Positions 3,029 through 30,546 of a DNA stretch of 40,627 nt are shown piece after piece. A program made the position numbers and the translations under genes. The notes beneath the pieces are model-generated. The model did not search any database, was not told the origin of the DNA, and worked only from the letters and a program-made list of their open reading frames with translations. The first letter of the stretch is position 1, and the number at the start of each line of letters is the position of its first letter. This DNA is from a virus, in the IMG/VR virus record IMGVR_UViG_3300020182_000008, positions 1-40,627 of that record; one strand, written 5' to 3'.

Positions 3029-3643
3029 ATGGAAGTTCTAAAACCATTCCCACAAATTATTTTTAAAGAAAAAGTCCCTAGTGCTTTTTTTTATATTAAA
3101 GAATTCTTAAACTCTCAAAAAACATTTTTTCCTCAAAAAGGTAACTGGGAAAGATCAAAAAGTACTTACATTTTAAATAATCCTAAATGTAAAGATTTTA
3201 ATAAATATATTTTAGATCAAGTACTTGTTTTTTCAAAGAAATATATAGGATTATCTTATAATGAATATAAACTTTCTCAATCTTGGGTTAGTATTAAGCA
3301 CCCTGGTCAACACCATTCTCCCCACACCCACCCTAATAGTTTAATTTCAGGAGTGTTTTATTATGGGGATATTTCCAACTCAACCCCTGGAATTAGTTTC
3401 CAACAACCACCTTTACATAGTAATGGATACACATTAGATATATCTTATCTTCCAAACCGTCACCCTTCAGAAGAATTTATTACATATAATATTTCAGAAG
3501 GAGATATGTTTTTATTTCCTTCTTATTTACCACATGCCGTGTTAAATAACGATACTACCCATCCAAGAAAATGTTTAGCATTTAATATTGTTCCTAAAAA
3601 TGGGTTTGGGAGTAGAGAGCATTTAACAGAACTTAAACTTTAA
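3029..3643 (+). CDS. 2OG-Fe(II) oxygenase, TIGR02466-like
   Basis: HTHPNSLISGVFY...FPSYLPHAV...RKCLAFNI. Confidence 0.85.
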   Translation: MEVLKPFPQIIFKEKVPSAFFYIKEFLNSQKTFFPQKGNWERSKSTYILNNPKCKDFNKYILDQVLVFSKKYIGLSYNEYKLSQSWVSIKHPGQHHSPHTHPNSLISGVFYYGDISNSTPGISFQQPPLHSNGYTLDISYLPNRHPSEEFITYNISEGDMFLFPSYLPHAVLNNDTTHPRKCLAFNIVPKNGFGSREHLTELKL

Positions 3644-3645
3644 AA

Positions 3646-4155
3646 ATGAAATATATAGGAAATATAGGACCTAAAATTGATGTAAATCTTTTTTATTTAG
3701 ATTTAGATACTAAAAAAATATCTGAAGAAATAATTCAACAAAAACTTCCTAGAAAAGTTCAAGATCCATTATCAACTTACTTTGAAGATTATCCTTTTGA
3801 ACCTTTACCTAATAGTGAAACAGAAAAACTTTTTAAAACTATAAAAAATCAATTTAAAGAATATAATGTAGAAATGTGGGTTCATATGCATCACCCTTTA
3901 GAAAGTACTACAATTCATCATCATGGAATGGATGGCCTTTCTTTTGCTTTTTATGCTAAAGTTCCCCAAAATAGTGGAATATTTGTTGTAATGCCTGCAG
4001 GGAATGGGGGGCCTAGTATCCCTATTCCACCCATAGAAGGTAGTCTTATATTATTCCCTTCATGGGTACAACATATGGTAACAAAAAACTTATCAAAAGA
4101 ACTTCGAATATGCATTTCAGGTAATTTACATAAAAAACAAAATGATTTCAAGTAA
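3646..4155 (+). CDS. 2OG-Fe(II) oxygenase, TIGR02466-like
   Basis: HHH...LSFAFY...FPSWVQHMV...RICISGN. Confidence 0.8.
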   Translation: MKYIGNIGPKIDVNLFYLDLDTKKISEEIIQQKLPRKVQDPLSTYFEDYPFEPLPNSETEKLFKTIKNQFKEYNVEMWVHMHHPLESTTIHHHGMDGLSFAFYAKVPQNSGIFVVMPAGNGGPSIPIPPIEGSLILFPSWVQHMVTKNLSKELRICISGNLHKKQNDFK

Positions 4156-4339
4156 ACTCCCAGTACTCCACGATATGTGGATAAAAAATATTATAGAGCC
4201 TTCTCATGTGATTTCTTACTTAGACAAGTTGGATTATACATTAGGATTTATTACATTGGAAGGAATAAGCGTTATATCAAAAAACAAAAAGACACAATTT
4301 TCATGGAAAACAACCGAAAAAAACAACACACCGATTTAG
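4142..4339 (+). CDS. Small hypothetical protein (65 aa)
   Basis: Fills the gap between the oxygenase and the probable folE start, overlapping both. Confidence 0.5.
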   Translation: MISSKLPVLHDMWIKNIIEPSHVISYLDKLDYTLGFITLEGISVISKNKKTQFSWKTTEKNNTPI

Positions 4340-4998
4340 AAGTAGTACCTGTAGGATATGCAAATGGTATAGCTGAAGGCTTCCCATTCACAGACAAAGA
4401 AAAATCTAGAATGATAGATCGTGCTGCTAAAGCATATGGTAAATTCTTAGATGAATTAAAATGTGATTGGAGAAATGATCCTAATTCTGCTGATACACCC
4501 CGTCGTGTAGCCAAAGCATATGTAAATGACTTATGGGCTGGTAGATATACGGCGATGAGTGAAATTACATCATTCCCTAGTGATGGTTATGATGGTGTTG
4601 TTATAGAGCGTAATATACCGCTGACTTCCATGTGTTCCCACCACCACCAAACAATACAAGGTGTAGTACATATTGGATATGTAGTTGGAGATGAAGGTAG
4701 AGTAATTGGTTTATCAAAACTAAATCGTATTGTAGAATTATTTGGTAGACGAGGAGCAATTCAAGAACAACTAACCTCAGCAATTCATAATGCTGTAGAT
4801 AAAATTTGTGAAAATAATAAAGGTGTTATTGTAACAGTTGTAGGAACACATAATTGTGTATCTTGTAGAGGAGTAAAACATCAAGGTGCTTCAATGGTTA
4901 CAACTAAAGTATCAGGAGTATTTTTTGATAATAATAATGTAGCACGTAAAGAATTTTTTGATTCAATTAAAATCAATAATGGAAATCACCCAGTGTAA
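4303..4998 (+). CDS. folE: GTP cyclohydrolase I (probable start MENNRKK at 4303)
   Basis: DTPRRVAKAY, SMCSHH, GLSKLNRIV, IQEQLT, HNCVSCRGV motifs. Confidence 0.95.
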   Translation: MENNRKKQHTDLEVVPVGYANGIAEGFPFTDKEKSRMIDRAAKAYGKFLDELKCDWRNDPNSADTPRRVAKAYVNDLWAGRYTAMSEITSFPSDGYDGVVIERNIPLTSMCSHHHQTIQGVVHIGYVVGDEGRVIGLSKLNRIVELFGRRGAIQEQLTSAIHNAVDKICENNKGVIVTVVGTHNCVSCRGVKHQGASMVTTKVSGVFFDNNNVARKEFFDSIKINNGNHPV

Positions 4999-5663
4999 TG
5001 TTTGATATAACTAAATTAGCTTTAAAGTTGCCTAATTTTCTTACACATAATGAGTGTGATAGGTTGATTAATGAGTATGAAACAAGATCAAACGAATCTT
5101 ATTTAGAAAAAAGTTCTAATTATAAAACAAATCAAGTTACTACTTCTAGTTTTAAAGTAGTTGAATTAAAACCTTATACAGATAATTTTAATTTAATTAA
5201 ATCAAAAACAAAAAAAGCAGTAGATTTATATATAAAACATCTTTCTAAACCCGGTTTTTTTTATACAAACTTATTAAAAAATACATTAAGATTTTCTCAT
5301 AATTATAGAGTTATGAAATACGACGTAGGGGCTGAAATACATCCACATAGTGATCATGATTCCGGAATTTATGGGAGTATAAGTTTTAATTTAAGTGAAG
5401 GGTATAAAGGAGGAGAATTTAAATTTTTTAATGGAAATTATACTGTACCTTTAAATAAAGGAGATGCTTTAATTTTCCCTGCAGATTATTTTTGGGTTCA
5501 TGAAGTAACTCCTGTAACTGAAGGAATTAGATATAGTATTAATAGTTTTTTATGTAAACATCCTTATGATGTTATAACTAAATCTTTCTATTTAGAAAAT
5601 TTAATTAGTAATGATTACCTAAAAAATACCCCCTCAGAAGAACTTTTGGGGCCATATAATTAA
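4998..5663 (+). CDS. 2OG-Fe(II) oxygenase, prolyl-4-hydroxylase-like
   Basis: HSD...YKGGEF...FP...HEVTPVTEGIRYS. Confidence 0.85.
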   Translation: MFDITKLALKLPNFLTHNECDRLINEYETRSNESYLEKSSNYKTNQVTTSSFKVVELKPYTDNFNLIKSKTKKAVDLYIKHLSKPGFFYTNLLKNTLRFSHNYRVMKYDVGAEIHPHSDHDSGIYGSISFNLSEGYKGGEFKFFNGNYTVPLNKGDALIFPADYFWVHEVTPVTEGIRYSINSFLCKHPYDVITKSFYLENLISNDYLKNTPSEELLGPYN

Positions 5664-5666
5664 AAA

Positions 5667-8686: not shown

Positions 8687-8700
8687 CAATATTTATTATT

Positions 8701-9984
8701 GTGAAAAATTTCTTAAATTCAATTCGTAAGGGATCATTTCCCTTTATAATAGCATTCTCTGCTCTATCAGTTAGCGCTTCGGCCGCCTTCTATAGTGTAA
8801 GCGGCTTGAGCAAACTATTTGCTGGTGCAGCATTTGAAGTAATTATTATGGCTGGCTCACTTGAGGTAGCAAAATTAGTAATTGCTTCATTATTGTATCA
8901 ATATTGGGGTACAATTAATAAAATACTTAGAGTTTATTTATCTGTAGCTACAATAATATTAGTGTTAATTACCAGTATGGGTATTTATGGGTTTTTAAGT
9001 GCAGCTTATCAGGATACTTATAGACAATTAACGGTTAAGGAAAACCAAATATCATTTTTAGACCAGAAGAAAGAATTTTATGAGAAGGATGTGGCAAGAT
9101 ATGATCAGGAACTTGAAAGAATCTCTAATAACATTAGTACTTTATCTAATGCGAAAGCAACCTCGATTCAAGTACGAGACACGACATCATCTACAGGCCT
9201 TCGATCAACAGTATCGACTGCCGAGCTTAGATTATCTCAAAAACGTATTGAAGTTGAAGAAGAAAACCGTAAAGAAGTTCAAGCTAAACGAGAGGTGGCA
9301 GCCGATTCCCTACAAAAATATCAACTCGAAATCTTAGATTTAGAAAATAATGCTGAAGTAGCAGGTGAATTAGGCCCCTTACAATATCTTTCAGGTTTAA
9401 CTGGCATTGGTATGGATAAAATTATTAATTACTTATTATTAGTAATTATATTTGTATTTGATCCTTTAGCTATTTCATTAGTTGTAGCAGCTAACTTTGC
9501 ATTTGCTAATGCTTTTCCTAAACGAGAAGAAGAAACACCTATACCTGATGTATTTGAAGATGAAGAATTTGAAGATTGGGATGAAGAAGTAACTGAAGAA
9601 GAAATTATAAAAGAACTTGAAGTTAACGAACCAGAAGTAGTTAAGGGTGATCCCGATTTTTTATCTAAATTAGATGAGATTGAAGCCCGAATGATAAATG
9701 ATAATACCCTAGAAAAACAATCTGAAAGGATAGAACAATTAGAAAATGAAATAGATTTAGCCCACGAAGAAATAAATGAATTAGATCGTGCTGCTATTAA
9801 AATGATTGATGGTATTAAACATATAGATGATTATTTAAAACACCATGGTGCCTATTATGATAAAAATGGGATAAAATGGGATGAAGTAAAATTAGGTTTT
9901 GCAGAAGAAAGTGATTATATTGAGAAGCGCAAACAAAGATCAAAACCCAAAGGTAGAGATAAAGACAATATAATAACTTACTAA
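8701..9984 (+). CDS. Membrane protein with long coiled coil and acidic C-terminus
   Basis: Three N-terminal hydrophobic segments, a heptad-rich middle, the IIFVFDPLA segment and an acidic tail. GTG start after an ATATTTAT motif. Confidence 0.75.
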   Translation: MKNFLNSIRKGSFPFIIAFSALSVSASAAFYSVSGLSKLFAGAAFEVIIMAGSLEVAKLVIASLLYQYWGTINKILRVYLSVATIILVLITSMGIYGFLSAAYQDTYRQLTVKENQISFLDQKKEFYEKDVARYDQELERISNNISTLSNAKATSIQVRDTTSSTGLRSTVSTAELRLSQKRIEVEEENRKEVQAKREVAADSLQKYQLEILDLENNAEVAGELGPLQYLSGLTGIGMDKIINYLLLVIIFVFDPLAISLVVAANFAFANAFPKREEETPIPDVFEDEEFEDWDEEVTEEEIIKELEVNEPEVVKGDPDFLSKLDEIEARMINDNTLEKQSERIEQLENEIDLAHEEINELDRAAIKMIDGIKHIDDYLKHHGAYYDKNGIKWDEVKLGFAEESDYIEKRKQRSKPKGRDKDNIITY

Positions 9985-9987
9985 CTA

Positions 9988-10596
9988 ATGTTACAAATTT
10001 CGGAACCTTATAACCAACCTACAGAAGTTATAGAACATAAAAATTTTCTTTCTTTAGAAGAAATAAGTAAATTATCTACAGATTTAAAAAATATTCCTTA
10101 TGAACCTGCTACAACACATGGTCTTCAAAAGTTAGAAGTAAGAAAAAGTAAAATTAAATGGTTAGGGTTTAATAAAGAATTTCAATGGTTATATTATAAA
10201 GTTATTGATCAAATTCAATTATATAATTCTTATTATTGGAATTTTAAATTAGAAGAATTAAAAGAACCCTTTCAATACACTGAATACAATTCAACATACC
10301 AGGGTAAATATGATTGGCATCTAGATTTAGGAAAAGATAAAACTTCATTTAGAAAAATTTCACTAACTATTCAGCTTTCATCCCCTAAAGAATATGAAGG
10401 GGGTATACTACAGGTGTACGATAGGGGATTAGGTAAAGGAGAATATAAGGATGCTGAGTTCCCTGTTTTTGATATTTCTAAGGGATTAGGAAATGCCGTA
10501 TTTTTTCCATCTTTCTTTCCACATAGAGTCACTCCTGTAACAAAAGGAATTAGAAGATCTTTAGTATTATGGGTTGGAGGTTGCCCTTTTAGATAA
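9988..10596 (+). CDS. 2OG-Fe(II) oxygenase, PKHD-type-like
   Basis: YDWHLD, RKISLTIQLS, YEGG, HRVTPVTKGIRRSLVLW. Confidence 0.88.
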   Translation: MLQISEPYNQPTEVIEHKNFLSLEEISKLSTDLKNIPYEPATTHGLQKLEVRKSKIKWLGFNKEFQWLYYKVIDQIQLYNSYYWNFKLEELKEPFQYTEYNSTYQGKYDWHLDLGKDKTSFRKISLTIQLSSPKEYEGGILQVYDRGLGKGEYKDAEFPVFDISKGLGNAVFFPSFFPHRVTPVTKGIRRSLVLWVGGCPFR

Positions 10597-10612
10597 TATA
10601 TTAATATAGGTT

Positions 10613-12373
10613 ATGTATAAAAAAGTTTTTGCAAAAGGTAAAGGAAATAACAAACATACAATTCATCTTTGGACAGATGAAGGTTATGAAGAATTAGAAT
10701 GGGATAATTATTCTTATAAAGAATGCCGCCCTGAAGATGCAGAGTTTAAAGGTTTAAAAGGAGAACCTTTACGCCGTACTCATGATTGGGATAAAAACAC
10801 CTCTAATCTTCATTTTGGTGACATCTCAGCTCATCAAAAATATCTTATAGAACGTTATGGTATAAATGATGAACCCTCTAAAACTTGTAGAGAGGTTTTC
10901 TTTGATATTGAGTGTGAAATGGGAGGAGCACTTACAGAAGAATATATTTCAAATGCCCCTAAACCTGTAACTTCAATTGCTTGGTACGATAAACAATTAG
11001 ACCAATGGGCGATTGTTATTTTAGATAAAAAAGGACAATTAAAACGTACTAAAGCAAAAAATAAAGAAATTATACCCTTTAGACACGAAGCAGATTTATT
11101 AGATTGTTTTCTATCCAGAATGGAAGAGATACAACCAGATATGCTTGTAGGGTATAATAGTGATTATTTTGATATCCCTTATCTATATTATAGAATATCT
11201 ATTGTGTTAGGTGATAGACACGCTAAACGTTTATCTCCAATTGGTATTATTAAACATAAAAAAAATAATCAATATTGGTATACTAAAGATATGTACGTTG
11301 ATATTGCTGGTGTTGAATCAATGGACTATATGCGCTTACATAAAAAGTATAGTTGGGAAGATGAACCAAGTTGGAAACTCGATGCTATCGGCGAAAAATA
11401 CGTAGGTATCAACAAAATTGAATATGAGGGTACATTAGATGATTTATTTGAAACCGATATCCAAAAGTTTATACAATATAACTTTGTTGACGTTGAAATA
11501 TTAGTTGAATTAGATAAAAAACTACAATATCTAGCATTAACAAGAAACCTAGCTCATAAGGGTAAAGTTAGATATAGTGAAGTATATGCCTCATCTAAAA
11601 TTCACGATGGTGCTATTTCAGCTTATTTACTATCACAAAATATAATCCCCCCAGGACGACCTCATGGAGAAAAGAAACTAAATTATGCTGGTGGTTATTT
11701 GTTTTGCCCTAAAGCCGGCTTATATAAGTACATGTTTGATGAAGATTTAACATCACTATACCCTTCAATTATTATGTCTCTTAATATTGGAAGAGAAACA
11801 ATTGTAGGTAAAATTGTTCCTGATACTTTACCTGAAAATTTAGAAGAATATGGGCCCTATGGAGGCAAACCAGATCGCAATAATTATTTAGGTTTAAATG
11901 ATTTAAAAGAAATGGAACCTCATGAATCCCTTATAGTAATGGATCCTAATAGGAAAGGTAATCCTAGAGCTACTGTACCTGTTGGGCAACTTATTAATAT
12001 GATAGAAAAAAATAACTATGCTTTAGCAGCAAATGGTACATTTTTTAGAACAGATAAAGAATCGGTATTGTCAACCATTTTAAGTAAATGGTTTGATGAA
12101 AGAAAAATGTATAAAGATGAAATGAAAAAATCATATAAAGCAGGAGATACTGAAAAAGGTGAATATTATCACTTAATGCAGTATACAATGAAAATTTTAC
12201 TTAACTCATTATATGGAGCTACAGCATTAAATTCATTTAGATACGGAATGCCTTTATCAATATTATCAGAAGCAATTACATTATCAGGATGGCGGATTAT
12301 ACAAGAATCAGCATTAGTTGCTAATCGCCATATGAATAAAATTTTAAGGAACGAAATAAAATTAGAAATATGA
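10613..12373 (+). CDS. polB: Family B DNA polymerase, N-terminal subunit (3'-5' exonuclease, motifs A and B)
   Basis: FDIE (ExoI), GYNSDYFD (ExoII), YNFVD (ExoIII), DLTSLYPS (motif A), KILLNSLYG (motif B). Stops before motif C. Confidence 0.93.
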   Translation: MYKKVFAKGKGNNKHTIHLWTDEGYEELEWDNYSYKECRPEDAEFKGLKGEPLRRTHDWDKNTSNLHFGDISAHQKYLIERYGINDEPSKTCREVFFDIECEMGGALTEEYISNAPKPVTSIAWYDKQLDQWAIVILDKKGQLKRTKAKNKEIIPFRHEADLLDCFLSRMEEIQPDMLVGYNSDYFDIPYLYYRISIVLGDRHAKRLSPIGIIKHKKNNQYWYTKDMYVDIAGVESMDYMRLHKKYSWEDEPSWKLDAIGEKYVGINKIEYEGTLDDLFETDIQKFIQYNFVDVEILVELDKKLQYLALTRNLAHKGKVRYSEVYASSKIHDGAISAYLLSQNIIPPGRPHGEKKLNYAGGYLFCPKAGLYKYMFDEDLTSLYPSIIMSLNIGRETIVGKIVPDTLPENLEEYGPYGGKPDRNNYLGLNDLKEMEPHESLIVMDPNRKGNPRATVPVGQLINMIEKNNYALAANGTFFRTDKESVLSTILSKWFDERKMYKDEMKKSYKAGDTEKGEYYHLMQYTMKILLNSLYGATALNSFRYGMPLSILSEAITLSGWRIIQESALVANRHMNKILRNEIKLEI

Positions 12374-12954
12374 AAAGAGAAATCCATAATATTTTTAAAG
12401 AAAACCGTCCAACTCCTTTTAAATATCCTCCTATATTAGAAGTATACGATGATTTTATCCCTTCTCTTATAATGGATAAATTAGAAAATTTAATCTATCA
12501 AACTCCTTTTTTTTATCAAAAAAATATAACCCATAATTTATCTTCTTCTTCAAATAAAGATATTACCTTCTCAAAAAGATTATTTGATGACTTAGATCAA
12601 TATGTTTCTTCTTCTTTATTTTCTTTTTTAGAACCCTTATATTTTTTCCTAATACAGAAAAATATAGTTATTAATACTATATCTCAAGCTAGGGTATTTT
12701 TACAACCTCCTTCTTTAAATCCTGAAATTTTAGACATCCATATAGATCAATTTAATCCACATATGGTTTTTCTTTATTATATAAATGATTCTGAAGGTGA
12801 TACTTATTTTTATAACCATGAGGGAGAAGTAATTAAACAAGTTTCTCCTAAAAAAGGTAGATTTATGTGGTTTGATGGTAGTTATTATCATTGTGGAAGT
12901 AAACCTGAATCAAACACAAGAGCTATTCTAAATATAAATCTTACAATTAAATAA
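12370..12954 (+). CDS. 2OG-Fe(II) oxygenase (cyanophage-like type)
   Basis: HID...YYINDSEGDT...PKKGR...HCGS...RAILN. Confidence 0.82.
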   Translation: MKREIHNIFKENRPTPFKYPPILEVYDDFIPSLIMDKLENLIYQTPFFYQKNITHNLSSSSNKDITFSKRLFDDLDQYVSSSLFSFLEPLYFFLIQKNIVINTISQARVFLQPPSLNPEILDIHIDQFNPHMVFLYYINDSEGDTYFYNHEGEVIKQVSPKKGRFMWFDGSYYHCGSKPESNTRAILNINLTIK

Positions 12955-12957
12955 AAT

Positions 12958-13305
12958 ATGAAATACGAAGTAGAAAGTAGACCTTGGGGAATGTACGAAG
13001 TTTTGTTAGATTCACCTGAATGTAAAGTTAAACGCATTACAGTAGCACCTGGTCAAAAATTATCATATCAATACCATCTAAAACGCTCAGAAAATTGGAC
13101 AACAGTAAAAGGCCATCTTACTATTATTTTAGAAGATAATAAAATATTTAGATCCCCAGGAGAATCTGTAAGAATATTGCAAGGTGAAAAACATAGAGCT
13201 TGGAATGAAACCGACGAAATAGTACAATTTATAGAAGTCCAAACTGGAACTTATTTTGGTGAAGACGATATAATAAGAATTGAAGATGAATATAATCGAG
13301 AATAA
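12958..13305 (+). CDS. Cupin mannose-6-phosphate isomerase (ManC C-terminal-like)
   Basis: RPWG, LSYQYH..RSENW, EVQTGTYFGEDDIIR. Confidence 0.88.
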   Translation: MKYEVESRPWGMYEVLLDSPECKVKRITVAPGQKLSYQYHLKRSENWTTVKGHLTIILEDNKIFRSPGESVRILQGEKHRAWNETDEIVQFIEVQTGTYFGEDDIIRIEDEYNRE

Positions 13306-14494
13306 GAAAAAAATTGCAATAATTGGAAGAGGTACCGCTGGTAGTTTAGCTTCTTCTTTATTTAATTTTTATAATACTAAAAATAATTATGAAATTGATT
13401 GGTATTTTGATCCAAATATTAATCCTTTATCTGTAGGAGAAGGTTCTACTTTAACTTTTCCAATTAATATAGGTCCACAATTAGATATAGGATATACAGA
13501 AGCTCGTAAATTAGATTGTACTAATAAAGTAGGTATTAAAAAAATAGGATGGAATGGAGTTGGAGATTATTTACATGAATTTCCTTTAGGACAGTCTGGT
13601 TTTCATTTTAATGCTACTAGTTTTCAAAATTATGTCTTAAATAAAATATCTTCCCAAGTTAATATTAAAAAAACTAATATAACTGACCCATCAAATATTG
13701 ATGCTACCCATATTATAAGTTGTACAGGAAAACCTAAAATTTACAATGAATTTTCTCCTGCCCAATACATCCCAGTAAATGCTGCCTTTGTAACCCAGTG
13801 TTATTGGGAAAAACCTGAGTTTGATTATACTTTATGTATAGCTAGACCTTATGGGTGGGTATTTGGGGTACCTTTACAAAATAGATGTTCTATTGGGTAC
13901 ATATATAATGAAAACATAAATTCTTTAGAAGAAGTAAAAAAAGATGTAGAAGAAGTATTTACCCAATTTAATTTAACTCCAAGCTCTGAAACTAATTCTT
14001 TAACTTTTAAAAATTATTACAGAAAAATAAATTATACTGAAAGAGTGTCTTATAATGGTATAGCTTCTTTCTTTCTAGAACCTTTAGAAGCTACTTCTAC
14101 CCATATGGCTATTGATGTAAATGAATCTGTTTTTAGGTATCTTTTTAGAGAGGATAAACCTTTACTCTCTAATATGAATGCCCGATATCTAAGACAACAA
14201 ATTGAAACTGAAAGGATGATTATGCTTCATTACCTTGCAGGTAGTCCTTATAAAACTACCTTTTGGGATTATGCTCAATCCCAAGGAGAAAAATGCATTA
14301 TTGAAACATCTGATGATAGTTTTAAAAAAATGATTTCTCATTCTCTTTTATATTTAAAAGAAAATAGAACTGTTTGGTGGGGTGAACACATACACAATAA
14401 TATAGAATTAGGACAATGGGGAATGAGTAGCCATAATCAAAACTTAAAAGGGTTAAACTTATACCCTAAACTAAAAAAATTGTTAAATTTATGA
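13280..14494 (+). CDS. Tryptophan-halogenase-like flavoprotein
   Basis: IIGRGTAG, VGEGS, TNKVGI, GWVFGVPL, FLEPLEATS. Confidence 0.8.
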   Translation: MKMNIIENKKKIAIIGRGTAGSLASSLFNFYNTKNNYEIDWYFDPNINPLSVGEGSTLTFPINIGPQLDIGYTEARKLDCTNKVGIKKIGWNGVGDYLHEFPLGQSGFHFNATSFQNYVLNKISSQVNIKKTNITDPSNIDATHIISCTGKPKIYNEFSPAQYIPVNAAFVTQCYWEKPEFDYTLCIARPYGWVFGVPLQNRCSIGYIYNENINSLEEVKKDVEEVFTQFNLTPSSETNSLTFKNYYRKINYTERVSYNGIASFFLEPLEATSTHMAIDVNESVFRYLFREDKPLLSNMNARYLRQQIETERMIMLHYLAGSPYKTTFWDYAQSQGEKCIIETSDDSFKKMISHSLLYLKENRTVWWGEHIHNNIELGQWGMSSHNQNLKGLNLYPKLKKLLNL

Positions 14495-15204
14495 TTTACA
14501 CTCCCGAATTATTAGTAAATTTTTATAGTACTTTTAATTACCCACCCCCTATAGATATAGATTGGACACTTTCAGGTGGTGGTGGTCCTTTAGGATATAA
14601 CATACACTATGCTTTAGAAATTGATTTTTTAATCAACTCATATAAATGTGATGCTATTATAGAAACAGGAACTAATGTAGGAGACAGTACAGAATATTTT
14701 GCAAAACAATATCCTAATATTACTATTATAACTTGTGAAATAGACTCTAAACATTTGGAGATAGCTTATAATAGATTAGAAAAATACCCTAATGTACATG
14801 TATTGCAAGGAAGTAGTGAAGAAATAGTTTTACAATTCCAAAATCAATTTACAACTCCATTTTATTTTTTAGATGCACATTTAAATGGAGATACCTATTG
14901 GCCCCTCCCAGATGAAATTAGAAATATTAGAAAAGGGATAATAAGTATTGATGATTTTGATATAAATGATTCATTTTATAAGTACGATACTTATGTAAAA
15001 TCAAATGGAGAACTTATAAAATGTAATTTACAATCTATCCCTAAAGAAAATATTTCTACCCCCATTTATTCAAACAATCCTTCAAAAAACCATTATCCTA
15101 TCCCAATAGTTCCTCCTATATACCAGGCTGGAAGAGGGTATTTTGGTATAGGGATAAAAGAAGATTATTTTAAATACAGTAAATTTTTTAAAAAGTTAAA
15201 TTAA
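14491..15204 (+). CDS. Putative class I SAM methyltransferase
   Basis: IIETGT..GDS, TCEID, FYFLDAH, IDD. Paralogous motifs occur in 34457..34927. Confidence 0.65.
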   Translation: MIYTPELLVNFYSTFNYPPPIDIDWTLSGGGGPLGYNIHYALEIDFLINSYKCDAIIETGTNVGDSTEYFAKQYPNITIITCEIDSKHLEIAYNRLEKYPNVHVLQGSSEEIVLQFQNQFTTPFYFLDAHLNGDTYWPLPDEIRNIRKGIISIDDFDINDSFYKYDTYVKSNGELIKCNLQSIPKENISTPIYSNNPSKNHYPIPIVPPIYQAGRGYFGIGIKEDYFKYSKFFKKLN

Positions 15205-15205: not shown

Positions 15206-15466
15206 ATGGCATTATCAAAACAATCATTAAGAAAAGGCGTTCATGTAATAGTGGATGATAAACTCGCTACAAAAGAAGAACTTATAGAAATGAGTGAATC
15301 TTGGAGCGAAAAACGCGAAGTATTTTTTCGTAAAATGCTCCAACAGGGAGGTAAATTTAAATTTGATGGAACCCAGTTTGAAATTAAAATTAGAGAACGT
15401 ATATTGAATACACTCGGAGAGGTAGATGGAGGAATAGAAAAAATTCCCGGGGAAAGAACATTTTAA
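15206..15466 (+). CDS. Hypothetical protein translationally coupled to the polB C-subunit
   Basis: 86-aa ORF with a TAATG overlap at 15466. Confidence 0.75.
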   Translation: MALSKQSLRKGVHVIVDDKLATKEELIEMSESWSEKREVFFRKMLQQGGKFKFDGTQFEIKIRERILNTLGEVDGGIEKIPGERTF

Positions 15467-16389
15467 TGAAACATTTAGAGACAACACCTTGGTTTATATG
15501 CGATGAAGATGATAAGAATCTATGTGCTTACGTAGATACAGATTCCAATTATTTCAATGCAGAACCCTTGTTGTTGCATCTCTATCCTAACTTTGAAACG
15601 TTTACTGATGAAGAAAAGGATGATAAACTGGAAAAAGTTGCTCTCTATTATCAAGACTTCATTTCTGACCATTATGATAATCTTGCTCGAAATTGTTTTA
15701 ATGTTCGAGATCATAGATTAGAAATGAAAACAGAAGCAGTAATTCGTTCTGCTTATTTTCGTGCCACTAGACGTTATGCTCAATGGATTACTAAACAAGA
15801 GGGTATATCAAAAGAAACATTAGATGTAAAAGGTCTAGAATATAAAAAATCAAATTTTCCTAAAGTGTTCGGTAATTTCTTTAAACAAGTAGTTGAAGAT
15901 GTTTTAAAAGGAACACAACAAAGCGAAATCGATACCCGTATACTTGATTTTAAGAAAAAGATACTAAGCGACATGCCTATTGGAGAATTAGGTAATCCTA
16001 CGGGAGTTAAAACATTAAATAAGTATATTGAACGCAAGCCTGTAGGTGCAGAAGCATTTACAATTATACGCAAAGGTGCACCTGCCGCAGTACGAGCTAC
16101 TATTAAGTATAATGATTTACTCAAATATTGGCAATTAGATAGACAATATGAAACAATTGTCCAGGGTAGTAAAGTAAAATGGATCTATCTAAAAAAGAAT
16201 CCATATAATATTGAAGCATTAGCATATCTTGATTATAATATGCCTCCTAAAATTAAGGAATTTTTAGATAAGTTTGCTGATAAAGAAAAAGTATTTGATA
16301 CTATATTATTAAACAAATTAGAAGGGTTTTATGATGACTTAGGTTGGAAATTAGTTACAAACCCTTATGTTAATCAGTTTTTTATATGA
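15466..16389 (+). CDS. polB: Family B DNA polymerase, C-terminal subunit (motif C, thumb)
   Basis: YVDTDS, RRYA, KGLE, YNDLL, KVKWIYL. Confidence 0.9.
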   Translation: MKHLETTPWFICDEDDKNLCAYVDTDSNYFNAEPLLLHLYPNFETFTDEEKDDKLEKVALYYQDFISDHYDNLARNCFNVRDHRLEMKTEAVIRSAYFRATRRYAQWITKQEGISKETLDVKGLEYKKSNFPKVFGNFFKQVVEDVLKGTQQSEIDTRILDFKKKILSDMPIGELGNPTGVKTLNKYIERKPVGAEAFTIIRKGAPAAVRATIKYNDLLKYWQLDRQYETIVQGSKVKWIYLKKNPYNIEALAYLDYNMPPKIKEFLDKFADKEKVFDTILLNKLEGFYDDLGWKLVTNPYVNQFFI

Positions 16390-17467: not shown

Positions 17468-18161
17468 TATTGAAAAATACTACCTAAATGGTTTAACTAA
17501 AGAGGTAGTATGGAACCTAGTAGGTGGTAAAGCTACAATTAATTTTGCTACTGAAACTAAAGATGCTGTAGGTACAGTTATATTTGATATGCCTTTACCT
17601 GATGGTCCCTTAGCTATCTATAGTACAGATGCTTTATTAAGATTAATTGGTATTACAAGTGAAGAAATACAAATTGAATTAAGTAAAGGTCCTACGGGTT
17701 TAATTGATAAATTAAAAATACAGGATAATAAATTTGATTTAAATTATCACCTTAGTGATATTAATTCAATGCCTGAAGTACCTAATGTAGCAGAAACCGA
17801 TTATGATTTTTCATTTAGGGTAAATAATGAATTTATTACAGGATTCCTTAAAGCACATAACGCATTAGAAAAAATAAAAGACGTTACATTTAATACTGCT
17901 ACAACCCCACAAGGTGAAGATGTAGTAGAAATTATATTAGGTGAACGCTCACAACACTCACATAAAGTTAAATTTACCGAATTAGCAAAATTTAAATCCC
18001 CAAGTGATATTCTACCATTTTCAGCTATTGTATTACGTGAAGTATTATCCGCTAATAAAGGGGTAGAAGGTACTATTTATGTAAGTAATAAAGGATTAAT
18101 GAAACTAGAATTTAATTCTGAAGAAAGTACAGCTAAATATTTTATAGTAAGACAACAATAA
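17442..18161 (+). CDS. DNA sliding clamp (gp45/PCNA-like)
   Basis: ~240-aa beta-rich protein ending GLMKLEF...AKYFIV; lies near polB and the clamp loader. TTG start. Confidence 0.6.
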   Translation: MKKSHIVSNIEKYYLNGLTKEVVWNLVGGKATINFATETKDAVGTVIFDMPLPDGPLAIYSTDALLRLIGITSEEIQIELSKGPTGLIDKLKIQDNKFDLNYHLSDINSMPEVPNVAETDYDFSFRVNNEFITGFLKAHNALEKIKDVTFNTATTPQGEDVVEIILGERSQHSHKVKFTELAKFKSPSDILPFSAIVLREVLSANKGVEGTIYVSNKGLMKLEFNSEESTAKYFIVRQQ

Positions 18162-18766
18162 TGTTAGATCTAGAAGAAAAATATAAATTTATAAATGTTG
18201 TTGATGATTGTGTCTCTCCTGAGATAGCTACATTTTTAGAAAATGTTTGTGTCCCCCAAACAGACCACCAGTTTAGAAAAGGTATGTATGAATTACCCCC
18301 CTTTATGACTTATGGTTTTACACCTAGAATTGCTCAAAATAGTGTCTCTCCAGGAATATCAACTTTACTTTCTTCGTTAAACTCAACAATTGAAATTGAA
18401 GATAGACATCATACTTTTGAATATCTTTGTTTAAATACTATATATAGTGCTAGTCATAAAGTAAATCTTATTGTAAAAAATGTAATTCAAGGTAGAGTTT
18501 TTTTACATATGCCATCTCCTAATCCTGGACTAGACGATATTCATGTTGATATGCCTTTTAACCATTGGGTATTTTTATATTATGTAAATGATAGTGATGG
18601 AGATACCGTATTTTTTAAGGATGATGAGAAAACAGAATTAAAAAGAGTAACTCCTAAAAAAGGTAGAGGGGTATTTTTTAATGGTTTAATTAAACATTGT
18701 AGTACTAGACCTAGTAAATCTCATAGATGTATTTTTAACTATGGATTTTTAGGTGAAAAACTTTAA
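18161..18766 (+). CDS. 2OG-Fe(II) oxygenase (paralog of 12370..12954)
   Basis: HVD...YYVNDSDGDT...PKKGR...HCST...RCIFN. Confidence 0.82.
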   Translation: MLDLEEKYKFINVVDDCVSPEIATFLENVCVPQTDHQFRKGMYELPPFMTYGFTPRIAQNSVSPGISTLLSSLNSTIEIEDRHHTFEYLCLNTIYSASHKVNLIVKNVIQGRVFLHMPSPNPGLDDIHVDMPFNHWVFLYYVNDSDGDTVFFKDDEKTELKRVTPKKGRGVFFNGLIKHCSTRPSKSHRCIFNYGFLGEKL

Positions 18767-18789
18767 AAAATTAATATATTTATAATAAA

Positions 18790-18850
18790 ATAACTAAGAC
18801 TCTAGGGCGAGTAGTTATGTTTTATGTTTAACCGGTGAGCTAATGCCACC
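18790..18850 (+). promoter_or_regulatory. Structured 5' leader of hsp20 (two hairpins)
   Basis: ATAACTA...TAGTTAT stem and GGTG(A)GC-taat-GCCACC stem, downstream of ATATTTATA at 18776. Confidence 0.5.
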
Positions 18851-18865
18851 ACAAATTTTAATGAT

Positions 18866-19276: not shown

Positions 19277-19294
19277 AAGTCTCTGCCCTAGAGC

Positions 19295-19325
19295 TAGGTT
19301 ATTTAACATGCTTTTCGTATATTTA
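19295..19325 (+). promoter_or_regulatory. Putative promoter (TTCG-TATATTTA)
   Basis: TTTTCGTATATTTA, shared with the sites at 21899 and 24956. Confidence 0.55.
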
Positions 19326-19348
19326 CGTAAATAAACAGTTATAAAAAT

Positions 19349-19630: not shown

Positions 19631-19737
19631 GCAAAGCACGTGGACAGTCACCTATGCGTAGGTACAAAAGACAGGATCAATTTAAATTGACCACTAATCA
19701 AGGAAACAAAATTAATCAATCCAAAAATAAAAAATGA
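19627..19737 (+). CDS. Small basic protein (36 aa), not in the ORF track
   Basis: MSKARGQSPMRRYKRQDQFKLTTNQGNKINQSKNKK*, with ATGA overlaps at both ends. Confidence 0.55.
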   Translation: MSKARGQSPMRRYKRQDQFKLTTNQGNKINQSKNKK

Positions 19738-21666: not shown

Positions 21667-21682
21667 ATTTAATTAATTAATT

Positions 21683-21856
21683 ATGAGTGCAAAACAAGAA
21701 TTGTTTGAGCAAATTGCAGAGCAGTTTGCCATTTTAGAGAGCGAAAACAGTGGAACAACAAAAGCTTCACAACAACGCGCTAGAAAAGCCGCAGGTGAAA
21801 TTAAAAAACTAATTACACCTTATAAAAAGGCAAACATGGACGCAGTAAAGTCCTAA
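21683..21856 (+). CDS. Histone H1-like (Hc1 family) small protein, not in the ORF track
   Basis: MSAKQELFEQI...TKASQQRARKAAGEIKKLITPYKKA (57 aa). The KA..RARKA motif is typical of Bacteroidota Hc1-like proteins. Confidence 0.7.
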   Translation: MSAKQELFEQIAEQFAILESENSGTTKASQQRARKAAGEIKKLITPYKKANMDAVKS

Positions 21857-21864
21857 AACTAAAT

Positions 21865-21896
21865 TTAGGGGGGCGTTTGCTCCCCTAATTATTTTT
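21865..21896 (+). terminator. Terminator after the chaperone operon
   Basis: TTAGGGGGGC-gttt-GCTCCCCTAA stem followed by TTATTTTT. Confidence 0.75.
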
Positions 21897-21906
21897 CGTA
21901 TATTTA
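21876..21906 (+). promoter_or_regulatory. Bacteroidota-type promoter upstream of HNH/clamp loader
   Basis: TTTG (21876-21879), N19, TATATTTA (21899-21906). Confidence 0.6.
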
Positions 21907-21932
21907 ATCCTAATATAAATTTTTTAATCGTT

Positions 21933-22283
21933 ATGTATAAGTTCGCAAAACCCCTACCTAGTGTAGAAACTTTAAATGAATTACTTGAACAAGACCCTTC
22001 TAACCCTAGTGGATTAAAATGGAAGGTTAATAGGAGAGGAAAAGCTAAGGCTGGAACTAGAGCTGGTCGTCCCACTGCTCAAGGTTATTATCAAACTTTT
22101 ATTAATGGTGCTCGTTACTACAACCATCGAATTATTTGGAAAATGGTAACAGGTAATGATCCTGAAGAAGTTATTGATCATATTCATGGTTTAGAGGGAG
22201 GAAATGTTTATTCAAACTTCCAAGATATTACTCAACAACAGAATATGACTAAAAAAATAGGAGAGATAATAAATGCTGCTTAA
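21933..22283 (+). CDS. Free-standing HNH (homing-type) endonuclease
   Basis: YNHRIIWKM...IDHI...GN..SNFQDITQQQN. Confidence 0.8.
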   Translation: MYKFAKPLPSVETLNELLEQDPSNPSGLKWKVNRRGKAKAGTRAGRPTAQGYYQTFINGARYYNHRIIWKMVTGNDPEEVIDHIHGLEGGNVYSNFQDITQQQNMTKKIGEIINAA

Positions 22284-23196: not shown

Positions 23197-23423
23197 TGGA
23201 ACAACAACCACAAATGAACTTGGATTTATCCAAAACAACCGCTATTGATACACCTTCAGGAGGTAAAATCTGGCAACAAGGAATGATATTACGTAAAGTA
23301 TCTAAATTTGTAACAGGTACTACTGAAGATGCTATTGTACCAATCCCAGTATTTTATGATGCTGAAACAGGTAAAATTTTAGAAGATACTTTACCACGTG
23401 AATTAAGAGAAGAGTACGCTTAA
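23196..23423 (+). CDS. Hypothetical protein
   Basis: 75-aa ORF coupled by TAATG on both sides. Confidence 0.75.
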   Translation: MEQQPQMNLDLSKTTAIDTPSGGKIWQQGMILRKVSKFVTGTTEDAIVPIPVFYDAETGKILEDTLPRELREEYA

Positions 23424-23830
23424 TGAACATATTTGACTGGCTCAATGAAATCTCATATGATAAACGAGATTGGAATGAATTTACCCCTGAACAACAGGCA
23501 TCGTTCGATCCGTATATGATACATCGTTTTATTTCTATGAAACAAGATTATATTGAGATAGTCAATGAAGTCCAGTATGTCCCTATTCCAACACCTCTTT
23601 TATATGATTTATGGTGTCAAGCTTTACCTAAAAAGAAAACATTTTTTAGATATATAAAGGCTAAAAGACCCTTGCCTAATGATAAACTTCTTATTATATT
23701 AGCTAATCATTGGAAAGTAAGCAAACGTGAAATAAAAGATAATTATAGTTTAATAAGTAAAGATTATATTAAACAATTACTTTTTGAAATAGGTATAGAC
23801 AAAAATAAACATAAAATTTATTTAAAATGA
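23423..23830 (+). CDS. Clamp loader small subunit (gp62-like)
   Basis: IFDWLNEI...PYMIHRFIS...FFRYIK; follows the gp44-like gene. Confidence 0.65.
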   Translation: MNIFDWLNEISYDKRDWNEFTPEQQASFDPYMIHRFISMKQDYIEIVNEVQYVPIPTPLLYDLWCQALPKKKTFFRYIKAKRPLPNDKLLIILANHWKVSKREIKDNYSLISKDYIKQLLFEIGIDKNKHKIYLK

Positions 23831-24054
23831 AAGTAGAATTATTCAAAATGTTAAAAACTGAAGCCGAAGCAGAAAAATCTAAGGCTATATTAACCCTTAA
23901 TTTATTAAGTGAACACCCCGCAGGTATTGGAGACCATAGTACTAAAGATTTTTATGAAAATGCTTCTGAAGCATTAACAATGTTAGTTGATGCTGATGAT
24001 AAATTAGAAGCTTTAGATAGATATTTTAAACCCCATGAAAATTTACTAGGATAA
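23827..24054 (+). CDS. Hypothetical phage protein (GIGDH motif)
   Basis: 75-aa helical ORF coupled to its neighbours. Confidence 0.7.
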   Translation: MKVELFKMLKTEAEAEKSKAILTLNLLSEHPAGIGDHSTKDFYENASEALTMLVDADDKLEALDRYFKPHENLLG

Positions 24055-24647
24055 TGGAATATTTTATTAAAGATTTTATAGGAACTTTTGATGGGTTTAT
24101 TCCACCTTCATATTGTAAAGATCTTATTAATTTTTTTAATAAACATTCTAATTACCAAACTACAAGAAAATCTCAAGAACCCTCAGTTCCTTTTTTTGAA
24201 AAACAAGATGCTTTTTTAGATCCTAAATCTTTATCTTTAGAACTAAAATCTAAATTAGATAATTTTGAAAAATATTTTAAACAAACTTTATATAAAAAAG
24301 TATTACCTTTATATATAGAAAAATATGGTATTTTAGAAAATGATTTACCTATATTAACTTTAGAAAATTTTATAATTCAAAAAACCCTCCCTGGAGAAGG
24401 ATACCATATATGGCATTATGAACATTCACCTGATGAAGTTCATTTAAAAAGATTAGGAGTTTGGACTTTATATTTAAATGATGTAAAAGAAGGAGGAGAA
24501 ACTGAATTTTTATATATTCATAAAAGAATTTCCCCAAAACAAGGAAAAATTTGTATCTTCCCTTCAGCGTATACACATACCCATAGGGGTAACCCTCCTT
24601 TATCTGGAGAAAAATACATAATTACAGGGTGGATAAATTATAAATAA
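24054..24647 (+). CDS. 2OG-Fe(II) oxygenase
   Basis: GYHIWHYE, YLNDVKEGGETEF, HTHRGNPP, KYIITGW. Confidence 0.88.
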   Translation: MEYFIKDFIGTFDGFIPPSYCKDLINFFNKHSNYQTTRKSQEPSVPFFEKQDAFLDPKSLSLELKSKLDNFEKYFKQTLYKKVLPLYIEKYGILENDLPILTLENFIIQKTLPGEGYHIWHYEHSPDEVHLKRLGVWTLYLNDVKEGGETEFLYIHKRISPKQGKICIFPSAYTHTHRGNPPLSGEKYIITGWINYK

Positions 24648-24947
24648 ATGAGTGATTCAGTAAAAAAATACTTTGAAAGTACATCAACATCTAATGTTAA
24701 AACTATATACCCTGGTGATATAGAAGTCACAATAGATAAACCTAAAAAAGATAATTACGTACAATTAGTAAAGGCTAAATTTGAACAACGTTCACAAACC
24801 GGTATTAAAAAATATAATACTACCTTAGAACGTGAAGATTTAGATTTACAAGACTGGCTAAACCATTTACAAGAAGAGTTAATGGATGCAACGTTATATA
24901 TTGAAAGATTAAAAGCTGAACTTAAAGGTAGGTTGGATACTCAATAG
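24648..24947 (+). CDS. Conserved phage protein, possibly all-alpha NTP-pyrophosphatase-like
   Basis: GIKKYNTTL...WLNHLQEELMDATLY. Confidence 0.55.
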   Translation: MSDSVKKYFESTSTSNVKTIYPGDIEVTIDKPKKDNYVQLVKAKFEQRSQTGIKKYNTTLEREDLDLQDWLNHLQEELMDATLYIERLKAELKGRLDTQ

Positions 24948-24963
24948 TTTCTTCGTATATTTA
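24932..24963 (+). promoter_or_regulatory. Putative promoter (GTTG-N20-TATATTTA)
   Basis: TTCGTATATTTAC motif upstream of the nuclease gene. Confidence 0.55.
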
Positions 24964-24978
24964 CACAAATAAAGATAA

Positions 24979-25917: not shown

Positions 25918-25950
25918 AATCTGTATATTTATATATATAATAAATAGATT

Positions 25951-26142: not shown

Positions 26143-26149
26143 TAGTTTT

Positions 26150-27586: not shown

Positions 27587-27588
27587 TT

Positions 27589-28881: not shown

Positions 28882-29478
28882 ATGAAAATTTTAGATATAT
28901 TCCCTACTAAAATATTAGGAAAGATCCTAAATAACCTTTCAGAAAGGGAATTAAATTCTTATAAAGATTTTATAATTAATGATTGTTCCGTTAATAAGGA
29001 ATCTAGTACTAGATTAAAACATACTCAAAATCAACAAATATTAAATTTACCTATATTTGTTAATTTAAAAAATAATATATTAAAATATTCTAAAGCTTAT
29101 TTAGATAATTTAGAATTAATATATGAAGACTTACAGTTTGCCTGTTCTTGGGGTAATATAGTTTATAAAAATGGATATTCAGGGGCACACCATCACAATA
29201 ATAGCTATTTAAGTGGGGTTTTTTATTTTGATTATAGTTCACCTATTAGTTTTTTTAAATCTCCTAATATTCACCAAGGTTTTAAATTAGATTCAAAAAA
29301 AGAGAATGATAGTAATGAATCTTTTATTATAGACCCTAAACCTAATTTATTACTAATATTCCCATCAACTCTAAATCACTGTATTTTACCTAGTTCGAAT
29401 GATATGAGAATTTCTATAGCTTTTAATATAATTCCTAAAGGAAAATTTGGTTTTCCAACAGCGGGTCTTAACTTATAA
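28882..29478 (+). CDS. 2OG-Fe(II) oxygenase, TIGR02466-like
   Basis: HHHNNSYLSGVFY...FPSTLNH...RISIAFNIIPKG. Confidence 0.85.
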   Translation: MKILDIFPTKILGKILNNLSERELNSYKDFIINDCSVNKESSTRLKHTQNQQILNLPIFVNLKNNILKYSKAYLDNLELIYEDLQFACSWGNIVYKNGYSGAHHHNNSYLSGVFYFDYSSPISFFKSPNIHQGFKLDSKKENDSNESFIIDPKPNLLLIFPSTLNHCILPSSNDMRISIAFNIIPKGKFGFPTAGLNL

Positions 29479-29481
29479 ATT

Positions 29482-29940
29482 ATGACAAAAGATAATCTTG
29501 AAAACTGTCCTAAATGTGGTGGAGATGCATGCTATACCACTAAACTGAACACTTCAGCTAAAAACTATTTTTGTTTTGGTTGTGGCTTTACTACTAATGA
29601 TTTAATGCGTATTGGTGAATTTGGTTTTGAACAATATGAAGAAACCCTACCCGAACTTTATAAAGATATTAAAGTTGATGATGGTACAACACGTATCTGG
29701 TATCCTATTGTAGTAAATATAGAAGACAAAGGTACTGTATTTGCTAAAGGTACTAACTATCAAAATTGGATGTGGGCTGGAATTAAAGTAAAAGAAGTAT
29801 CAAAAGAAGAACAAGAAAAGTTTAAAATACCGGGTTCTGATAAAGTTTACAAATATAAAACTGATATGTCTACTTTAAAAGAATGGGGACAACGTGACTT
29901 TATGGAGGCACTTGATTATATTGGATTTTTTCAAAATTAA
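29482..29940 (+). CDS. Hypothetical protein with N-terminal Zn ribbon
   Basis: CPKC...CFGC. Confidence 0.7.
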   Translation: MTKDNLENCPKCGGDACYTTKLNTSAKNYFCFGCGFTTNDLMRIGEFGFEQYEETLPELYKDIKVDDGTTRIWYPIVVNIEDKGTVFAKGTNYQNWMWAGIKVKEVSKEEQEKFKIPGSDKVYKYKTDMSTLKEWGQRDFMEALDYIGFFQN

Positions 29941-29943
29941 AAT

Positions 29944-30546
29944 ATGTTTATAGATTTATTTCCAACTGTGCTTTATCAAGAAAATTTAATAGATATTTCT
30001 GACGAAGAATTGCAACAATATATTAAACAAGTTTACGATGAAGAATCTATAGAAGAACCTAATAATAAGGGAACTACTACTATAAATCAAAAATTATTAG
30101 ATCTTCCCTTATTTTTTAAGTTAAAAAAACACGTTTTATATTATTCTCACAACTATTTTACAGAATTAGGATACTCAGATTTTGACATTCAAATAAGTTG
30201 TTCATGGGCTAATATAGTAAACACAAATCATAGTATCCAAAAACATTATCATACTAACAGTTTTTTAAGTGGTTGTTTTTACCCTACTAGTAATCCCTCT
30301 CCTATAATGTTTACTAATCCTATAGATGATAAGTGGATTTTTGAAGATATTAAAAATAGTTTTCCTAATAAACATCGTACTTGGGGTAGTTTTAAATATG
30401 TTCCTAAAGTAAAAGATATATTATTATTTCCTTCTTGGTTACTACATGAGGTTATTGAATCCAAACAAGATGGAAGGATAACAATTGCCTTTAATATAAT
30501 ACCTAAAGGTGAAATTGGGACGCTAGCAAATAAAATAAATTTTTAA
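29944..30546 (+). CDS. 2OG-Fe(II) oxygenase, TIGR02466-like
   Basis: HYHTNSFLSGCFY...FPSWLLHEV...RITIAFNIIPKG. Confidence 0.85.
   Translation: MFIDLFPTVLYQENLIDISDEELQQYIKQVYDEESIEEPNNKGTTTINQKLLDLPLFFKLKKHVLYYSHNYFTELGYSDFDIQISCSWANIVNTNHSIQKHYHTNSFLSGCFYPTSNPSPIMFTNPIDDKWIFEDIKNSFPNKHRTWGSFKYVPKVKDILLFPSWLLHEVIESKQDGRITIAFNIIPKGEIGTLANKINF

Follow-up and report, generated by a model that had tools for sequence, protein, structure and literature searches.

The first 40.6 kb (positions 1–40,627, hereafter the window) of the 166,268-bp IMG/VR virus record IMGVR_UViG_3300020182_000008 carry nine genes for 2-oxoglutarate- and Fe(II)-dependent (2OG-Fe(II)) oxygenases, wedged between core genes of a marine T4-like phage. 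Comparison with related loci revealed clean presence or absence of these genes at particular gene junctions (‘slots’), together with swaps of very divergent alleles. From these sequence comparisons, we consider it probable that the nine represent three old families whose members founded each slot rarely and have since been exchanged between phages by way of the conserved flanking genes.

Profile matches identified all nine open reading frames (ORFs), each on the + strand, as 2OG-Fe(II) oxygenases, as a model's sequence-only reading of this DNA had proposed; its ‘about four subfamilies’ reduce to three. Family A (PF13759/phrog_81/TIGR02466) comprises oxygenase 1 (3029–3643, between queE and oxygenase 2; PF13759 E = 7e-20), oxygenase 2 (3646–4155, in tandem with oxygenase 1; E = 7e-13), which is a divergent, long-branched member and not a subfamily of its own, oxygenase 8 (28882–29478, between the second GT1 glycosyltransferase gene and gene 29482–29940; E = 3e-16) and oxygenase 9 (29944–30546, between gene 29482–29940 and a GT2 glycosyltransferase gene; E = 1e-16). 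All four satisfy PF13759, and oxygenases 1 and 9 lie above the TIGR02466 cut-off of 62.5 bits (66.4 and 70.1), with 8 and 2 below it (49.2 and 36.7). Family B (PF13640/phrog_61) comprises the prolyl-4-hydroxylase-like oxygenase 3 (4998–5663, between folE and PRTase, with a TAATG overlap with the folE stop; PF13640 E = 1e-9), oxygenase 4 (9988–10596, between a 427-aa gene at 8701–9984 and the polB N-part; E = 1e-13) and oxygenase 7 (24054–24647, between genes 23827–24054 and 24648–24947; PF13640 E = 1.5e-11, phrog_61 E = 1e-48). The small gene 23827–24054 lies 5′ of oxygenase 7, two genes past the clamp-loader small subunit gene (23423–23830). Family C (phrog_274, E 1e-26 to 1e-31) comprises oxygenase 5 (12370–12954, the first gene in the split polB, with an ATGA overlap with the polB N-part; E = 7e-31) and oxygenase 6 (18161–18766, between gene 17442–18161 and the conserved hsp20 leader; E = 5e-26). 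These two fall slightly below the PF13640 cut-off (25.0 and 23.2 versus 27 bits), and the other seven of the nine exceed a Pfam gathering score (PF13759 or PF13640).

Each family's alignment with relatives has an invariant metal triad and an invariant basic 2OG-binding residue: H99, H101, H169 and R180 in family A (H-x-H...H type; oxygenase 2 retains the H-x-H, the distal His and the Arg), H121 and H177 in family B, with an acidic residue two positions past the first His and R/K past the distal His, and H128, D130, H179 and R189 in family C. The paralogs are at most 46% identical to one another, so none is a recent duplicate; the three families are old. A hidden Markov model sweep of every ORF in the window found no tenth oxygenase. 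Five more lie beyond it in the same record (starting at 41398, 64632, 65852, 67084 and 69412; 14 in total), four of which, at 64.6–70 kb, are more closely spaced.

Two IMG/VR scans for relatives, queried with the polB N-part and the PD-(D/E)XK nuclease, yielded 128 loci with the same gene order, most of them contig fragments. Most slots that are filled in the window are vacant there. An oxygenase is present at the folE–PRTase junction in 2 of 42 relatives, between gene 17442–18161 and hsp20 in 2 of 66, between the second GT1 gene and gene 29482–29940 in 4 of 26, and between gene 29482–29940 and the GT2 gene in none of 23; no relative has one at exactly the position of oxygenase 5. The interval from gene 23827–24054 to the PD-(D/E)XK nuclease is a hot spot, with one to three family B copies in each of 26 of 80 relatives, all from one clade (support 98). 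Where a slot is empty, the neighbouring genes meet in a clean, translationally coupled overlap (TAATG, ATGA) or are separated by the same short spacer. The sequence-only reading had set its insertions against a state in which relatives share the same oxygenases at the same positions with core-like composition; that is not what we found, because most relatives lack these oxygenases, the empty junctions are clean and the composition of the oxygenases is unlike that of core genes. The outcome favours that reading, which the data support in part.

In a tree of 85 oxygenases, sequences clustered by junction, with 33 label changes compared with a mean of 62.5 after shuffling (none of 200 shuffles was as low), and several slot-specific clades had 98–100 support. 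A single founding event, or a few at most, therefore lies behind each slot. Repeated single-gene insertion, as the sequence-only reading had proposed, is unsupported, there being one clade per junction across relatives. Some clades span neighbouring slots: the four family C slots around polB share one, as do the three family B slots between gp62 and the nuclease and the oxygenases on either side of gene 29482–29940, and the nearest kin of oxygenase 9 is a second copy at the neighbouring slot in locus L128. On tree topology, this suggests local duplication.

Within slots, the alleles are often far more divergent than their surroundings. Nucleotide identity to the closest relatives drops from 90–100% in the flanks to 35–70% within ~30 nt of the oxygenase borders and then recovers. 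Two cases show the exchange directly. For oxygenase 6, identity to its counterpart in L116 is 66.7%, with flanks 60% and 75% identical, and to that of L011 only 42.8%, with flanks 91% and 94% identical. Oxygenase 1 forms a clade (support 100) with those that L010 and L011 carry between queE and folE, to which it is 48% and 39% identical, with queE and folE at 82–99%; against L010, its synonymous divergence (dS) is 0.91, compared with 0.28 for queE and 0.31 for folE. At least one allele, that of oxygenase 6, is thus common to different backbones. Further slots show similar disparities: oxygenase 4, which groups (support 98) with the same-slot copies of L010 and L011 and with a copy at the FucT|h34457 junction in L100, is 48–50% identical within flanks of 82–90%, and oxygenase 8 is 45% identical to that of L089 within flanks of 88–91%. 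The closest relative differs gene by gene along the window, and the backbone itself is therefore mosaic. For oxygenase 5, no close homologue was found in IMG/VR; a family C profile scan returned more than 550 viral relatives, of which the only one more than 60% identical sits at the slot of oxygenase 6. Dating by dS is constrained by saturation in a genome with ~15% GC at third codon positions (GC3).

We weighed whether the oxygenases might instead be ancient, stable content, present for the most part in the ancestor of the close clade and lost singly from the poorer relatives through short border repeats. The position-specific clades are deeply divergent inside, and the empty junction that is seen is exactly what deletion between two (A)ATG borders would leave. 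Oxygenase 3 has same-slot orthologues in L011 (67%) and L014 (68%), the latter from the opposite side of the close clade, with dS similar to that of the flanks; its divergence in step with its surroundings fits vertical descent with losses elsewhere. L009, without an oxygenase at the five slots that its contig has in common with L011, is the sister of the oxygenase-rich L011 in the polB tree. Against this last point, the mosaic backbone means that a tree of polB does not stand for the tree of the genome. Furthermore, tblastn found no oxygenase remnants in 221 junction gaps of 60–1500 nt without a called oxygenase, the strong matches in junction gaps being solely to one full-length ORF in L011/L092 that had not been mapped before. 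All 69 loci of the larger sister clade are without oxygenases at six window slots, and the whole records of four relatives (86–122 kb), one with a polB 86–96% identical to that of the window, hold 0–1 oxygenase. Oxygenase counts rise with a relative's overall closeness to the window genome, from the 1 to 5 of intermediate partial contigs to at least 10 within the 45.6 kb of the closest contig. We therefore think stable content unlikely.

Among more distant relatives, these slots are taken by unrelated genes, encoding DUF6445 proteins, a radical-SAM enzyme, flavodoxin, a cytidylyltransferase, a methyltransferase and a GIY-YIG endonuclease. The last of these, a SegE-like homing endonuclease (L044:746–1456), occupies the folE–PRTase junction, which is the slot of oxygenase 3 in the window. 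A DUF6445 protein of 207–234 aa is the usual occupant between gene 17442–18161 and hsp20 (L060:4915–5577 and 17 similar loci). Its end motif, G/NRxVxF...H, recalls 2OG oxygenases; profile comparison of DUF6445 with families A and C was not significant.

The oxygenases differ from core genes in composition, as the sequence-only reading had judged by eye from their AT-richness and few CGT codons. Computed per gene, GC is 0.269 against 0.314 in comparison genes, GC3 is 0.130 against 0.184 in core genes, the CpG observed/expected ratio is 0.27 against 0.64 in comparison genes, and CGT makes up 7% of Arg codons against 32% in core genes (Mann–Whitney P of 7e-5 to 7e-4 for GC, GC3 and CpG against core genes). 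The ratio of non-synonymous to synonymous divergence (dN/dS) is 0.28–0.82 in oxygenases and 0.02–0.35 in core genes. Raised dN/dS, AT drift and loss of preferred codons show that selection on the oxygenases is weaker or diversifying, with catalytic residues retained.

Such rates raise the alternative that the genes were inherited vertically with their flanks and merely diverged many-fold faster in place, with no exchange of alleles. It would account for dN/dS values of 0.45–0.82 within flanks of ~0.1, for the modestly higher dS of oxygenase 6 against L011 (0.67 versus 0.35–0.45) and for the equality of dS between oxygenase 3 and its flanks. We give it little credence, as oxygenase 6 is nearer to L116 than to L011, the reverse of its flanks, which lie far nearer to L011, the dS of oxygenase 1 against L010 is three times that of its flanks, and the backbone is mosaic gene by gene.

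The placement of the oxygenases proved less peculiar than it had seemed. Gaps 5′ of oxygenases 1 to 9 are, in order, 14, 2, −1, 3, −4, −1, −1, 0 and 3 nt, and 3′ gaps are 0–21 nt except for the 99 nt of hsp20 leader after oxygenase 6. The tight overlaps or 0–4-nt gaps noted in the sequence-only reading therefore hold for most oxygenases, but are not an oxygenase trait, since gaps of at most 4 nt also precede 72% of the other genes. Likewise, placement one by one is right in that the genes are unclustered, with no grouping into a hypervariable island beyond chance in the window, but they are not over-dispersed: one adjacent pair among 9 of 56 genes is the random expectation (P(0) = 0.22, P(1) = 0.40, P(2) = 0.27 adjacent pairs).

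Every intergenic gap longer than 25 nt, except 2158–2240 and 19631–19733, contains the promoter-like word TATATTTA (444–507, 18767–18865, 19277–19348, 21857–21932, 24948–24978 and 25918–25950; four times as GTATATTTA), which is probably a promoter element of the window phage and resembles the Bacteroidetes −7 box, TAnnTTTG, which makes Flavobacteria a lead for the host. No oxygenase has a 5′ gap above 14 nt, and so none has room for such a spacer. With the word in most of the longer gaps and no room for it before any oxygenase, borrowed operon expression is plausible; the oxygenases would be expressed by read-through and translational coupling from upstream promoters.

In the account that we favour, rare founding with exchange through the flanks, the three old families circulate among marine T4-like phages as part of their accessory genes. 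In this lineage, the genes for replication, nucleotides and glycans form one long co-directional array joined by stop/start overlaps, and an extra gene would therefore survive only exactly between a stop and the next start. A slot may be founded by rare illegitimate recombination at the short (T)AATG/ATGA-type homologies common to all gene borders or, alternatively, by duplication into a neighbouring slot; each filled slot holds its own orthologous oxygenase lineage. Homologous recombination in the conserved flanks would then let co-circulating genomes reassort the cassettes, spreading, removing and swapping them; T4-like replication makes such recombination frequent. Insert borders fall on start codons, and the left and right borders of each cassette share at least 4 nt of (A)ATG-type homology, so that border-to-border exchange would add or delete exactly one gene and restore the junctions observed.

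Several points weigh against this account. A match of at least 4 nt including ATG is almost guaranteed by chance, which leaves the microhomology route of founding no more than feasible. Nearest paralogs were not genomic neighbours beyond chance in a permutation test (three reciprocal pairs, P = 0.15). Gain and loss are inseparable for any one slot, and across three genomes that together cover the breadth of the close clade oxygenase 3 has diverged at the pace of its flanks, as old content would if inherited vertically and precisely lost several times. Saturation is nearly reached at the synonymous sites of this AT-rich genome, and the higher dS of the oxygenases may partly reflect weaker codon selection, not older alleles.

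The sequence-only reading had found no sequence shared by the oxygenase boundaries, and a junction motif test agreed with it: the best border k-mer reached P = 0.007 over ~30 tests, and none survived correction. TAATG is in mild excess at left borders (5 of 9 oxygenases versus 5 of 45). Promoter-plus-stem-loop cassettes (PeSLs) at the gene ends were not found; counts of sigma-70-like promoters and terminators were at or below those in shuffled sequence, which makes that scan uninformative here. No nuclease gene lies beside any window oxygenase, as insertion by a free-standing homing endonuclease would require, the HNH gene of the window (21933–22283) standing between the small gene after groEL (21683–21856) and gp44. 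A special insertion mechanism, which the sequence-only reading had posited and left unnamed, is thus unsupported, with no motif, promoter cassette or nuclease at oxygenase borders. Actively mobile single-gene cassettes with a dedicated stop/start-targeting system (PeSL-like, homing or of an unknown site-specific kind) might be suspected from insert borders that coincide with start codons to the nucleotide, the TAATG excess, the member of the oxygenase 4 clade found at FucT|h34457 in L100 and the PeSL-mediated shuffling documented for T4-type phages (PMC2839356, PMC4122927), but seem to us very doubtful given, besides these negative searches, gaps (−4 to +14 nt 5′ and 0–21 nt 3′, the hsp20 leader apart) too small for a promoter plus stem-loop, paralogs too divergent for any recent movement, the same-slot position of the only close IMG/VR homologue of oxygenase 6 and the unrelated gene families in the same slots.

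Regarding what the enzymes do, families A and B match solved structures of the double-stranded beta-helix (DSBH) fold by sequence, and the fold was modelled for family C only. In sequence profile searches, family B matched prolyl 4-hydroxylases of Bacillus anthracis (5hv0, E = 2.8e-19) and PBCV-1 (5c5t, E = 6e-14), and family A matched two uncharacterised structural-genomics proteins (3bvc and 2rg4). An AlphaFold2 model of oxygenase 6, built on the family C alignment with oxygenase 5 included (pLDDT 79.7, pTM 0.80), gave at least 500 PDB matches with Foldseek, the top ones listed being all 2OG oxygenases with the DSBH fold. P3H1 and PHD2 came first (probability 1.0), with the Pseudomonas EF-Tu prolyl hydroxylase also present; fold matches to 8k0m, 5l9b and 4iw3 had E of 8e-8 to 8e-7. 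No DNA-base or nucleic-acid oxygenases were among the top matches listed. Similarity of family C to the flagellin-modification oxygenase FlmC was faint (25–27 bits against a cut-off of 240). By profile and model, families B and C most resemble protein prolyl hydroxylases, and family A (TIGR02466) is without a known substrate; five of the nine (families B and C) thus point to prolyl-hydroxylase-like enzymes that would act on proteins.

The window has ~30% GC, with all genes on the + strand, and a T4-like backbone order: queC/queE/folE, PRTase, a split carbamoyltransferase–MazG, a split family B DNA polymerase, hsp20, GroES/GroEL, clamp loader gp44/gp62, a PD-(D/E)XK nuclease, and a glycosyltransferase and GDP-sugar cluster. 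The best cultured-phage match of its polB, at 33% identity, is Microcystis phage Mel-JY01, followed by cyanophages, Methylophilales phages and Vibrio phages, and megablast of the whole window against cultured phages returned only a 466-nt MazG match in Flavobacterium phage immuto. It belongs to a new, uncultured marine T4-like lineage that probably infects something other than a cyanobacterium. Neither an Rfam nor a tRNA scan gave a match in the window.

The polymerase is encoded in two parts, at 10613–12373 (586 aa) and 15466–16389 (307 aa). This split is retained in most of ~80 relatives, with the two parts as adjacent ORFs in a few loci; the gene content of the gap varies and includes cupin/MPI, an 86-aa ORF, DUF6165, DegT-type aminotransferase sets and 300–480-aa ORFs without assignment. 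In the window, the gap also holds a tryptophan-halogenase-like flavoenzyme and a methyltransferase (13280–15204), with a CpG ratio of 0.14–0.16, low as in the oxygenases; among relatives, a halogenase homologue (50–54% identity) occurs only in L011, and the methyltransferase in none. The HNH endonuclease gene 21933–22283, just 5′ of gp44 and overlapping its start by 11 nt, is missing in all relatives, which have unrelated ORFs of 86–305 aa in its place. The sliding clamp label that the sequence-only reading gave to 17442–18161 was unsupported by Pfam, PHROGs or PDB sequence searches. The start of folE is ATG 4303 (MENNRKKQ...), as in relatives, and not GTG 4177. A conserved 65-aa ORF (4142–4339, + strand) shares 14 nt with the end of oxygenase 2 and 37 nt with the beginning of folE; it is near-identical in L010 and has homologues in L009, L011 and L014.

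The hsp20 leader (18767–18865, + strand) is intact 3′ of oxygenase 6 and contains a promoter-like TATATTTATAAT and a hairpin. Its 99 nt, with a TATA(T/G)TATAAT-like box and a conserved CTAGGGC core, are conserved in an alignment of 61 distinct relatives, and empty junctions keep the same spacer of 92–107 nt. The hairpin arms co-vary by eye (CCGAG...CUC, CCGGU...ACC, CCGAC...GUC), with an RNAalifold energy of almost nil (−0.5). The leader had no Rfam match and may be a regulatory 5′ untranslated region or an RNA thermometer.

Taken together, the pattern is that of ordinary swappable, slot-fixed, recombining accessory genes, known from marine phages and here found in a new lineage. It offers a simple account of the surgical look of accessory genes in coupled phage operons, needing no new mobile element: selection permits only stop-to-start placement, and flanking core genes act as recombination arms. 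On a near-same backbone, two genomes have at least 10–14 oxygenases, partial contigs have graded numbers and longer relatives have 0–1. A speculative reading, to which we attach a rather low probability, is that the oxygenases are a co-selected, near all-or-none repertoire of fast-evolving protein hydroxylases, with a fixed catalytic core and diversifying substrate surfaces, that serve as swappable effectors of host takeover or counter-defence; if true, they would be arms-race effectors, not housekeeping auxiliary metabolism. The discovery itself is modest. Its most interesting residue is this contrast of 0–1 versus at least 10 oxygenases, together with the fast-evolving alleles. Both the search for substrates and analyses of selection could draw on the natural near-isogenic contrasts of this lineage (none, few or more than 10 oxygenases, and divergent alleles at fixed slots).

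Published phage genomes already show these gene families, many copies of them per genome and the wedged arrangement. Most cyanomyoviruses have one to five copies of 2OG-Fe(II) oxygenases (Sullivan et al. 2010, PMC3037559), a 27-kb sea-ice contig has nine (PMC13436968), and cyanophage S-SCSM1 has 24, from four Pfam families, exchanged mainly within the phage pool (PMC9602691); its copies are at most 44% identical to one another, close to the 46% ceiling of the window phage. With marine T4-like cyanophages, the window shares Pfam families (PF13640 and PF13759) and many divergent copies scattered over the genome, and tblastn of its oxygenases matched 73–456 cultured phage records at 26–45% identity, mostly cyanophages but also pelagimyophages and Methylophilales phages. 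It differs in its distinct backbone, with a polB at most 33% identical to that of any cultured phage, and in the population-level data for its lineage: clean empty slots, slot-specific clades and near-isogenic relatives with 0–1 versus at least 10 copies.

The cultured Pelagibacter phage Mosig EXVC030M (MT647606) has the same layout, with UvsY–oxygenase–UvsW and gp47–oxygenase–gp46–oxygenase orders and shared border bases, and a family A member 28.5% identical to oxygenase 1, but at other junctions and on another backbone. As for the enzymes, bacterial and viral prolyl 4-hydroxylases (5hv0, 5c5t and the Pseudomonas 4iw3) and human PHD2 are the closest known kin, with family B matching by sequence profile and family C by predicted fold (TM 0.52–0.61, probability 1.0), and the phage enzymes retain the HxD/E...H triad and the basic 2OG-binding residue; family C is only 12–18% identical to them, and the substrate-binding loops of the phage enzymes are not conserved. 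Finally, variable ORFs between core genes, and their shuffling by recombination, are established for T4-type phages (Arbiol et al. 2010, PMC2839356; Comeau et al. 2014, PMC4122927). The window resembles their hyperplastic regions in having a conserved core broken by variable non-essential ORFs, with close relatives set apart by insertions, deletions and replacements and with recombination as the driver. The PeSLs of those phages are intergenic and flank variable ORFs mostly inside islands, whereas the window cassettes abut their neighbours without a shared motif, and the homology for their exchange appears to come from the core genes on either side.

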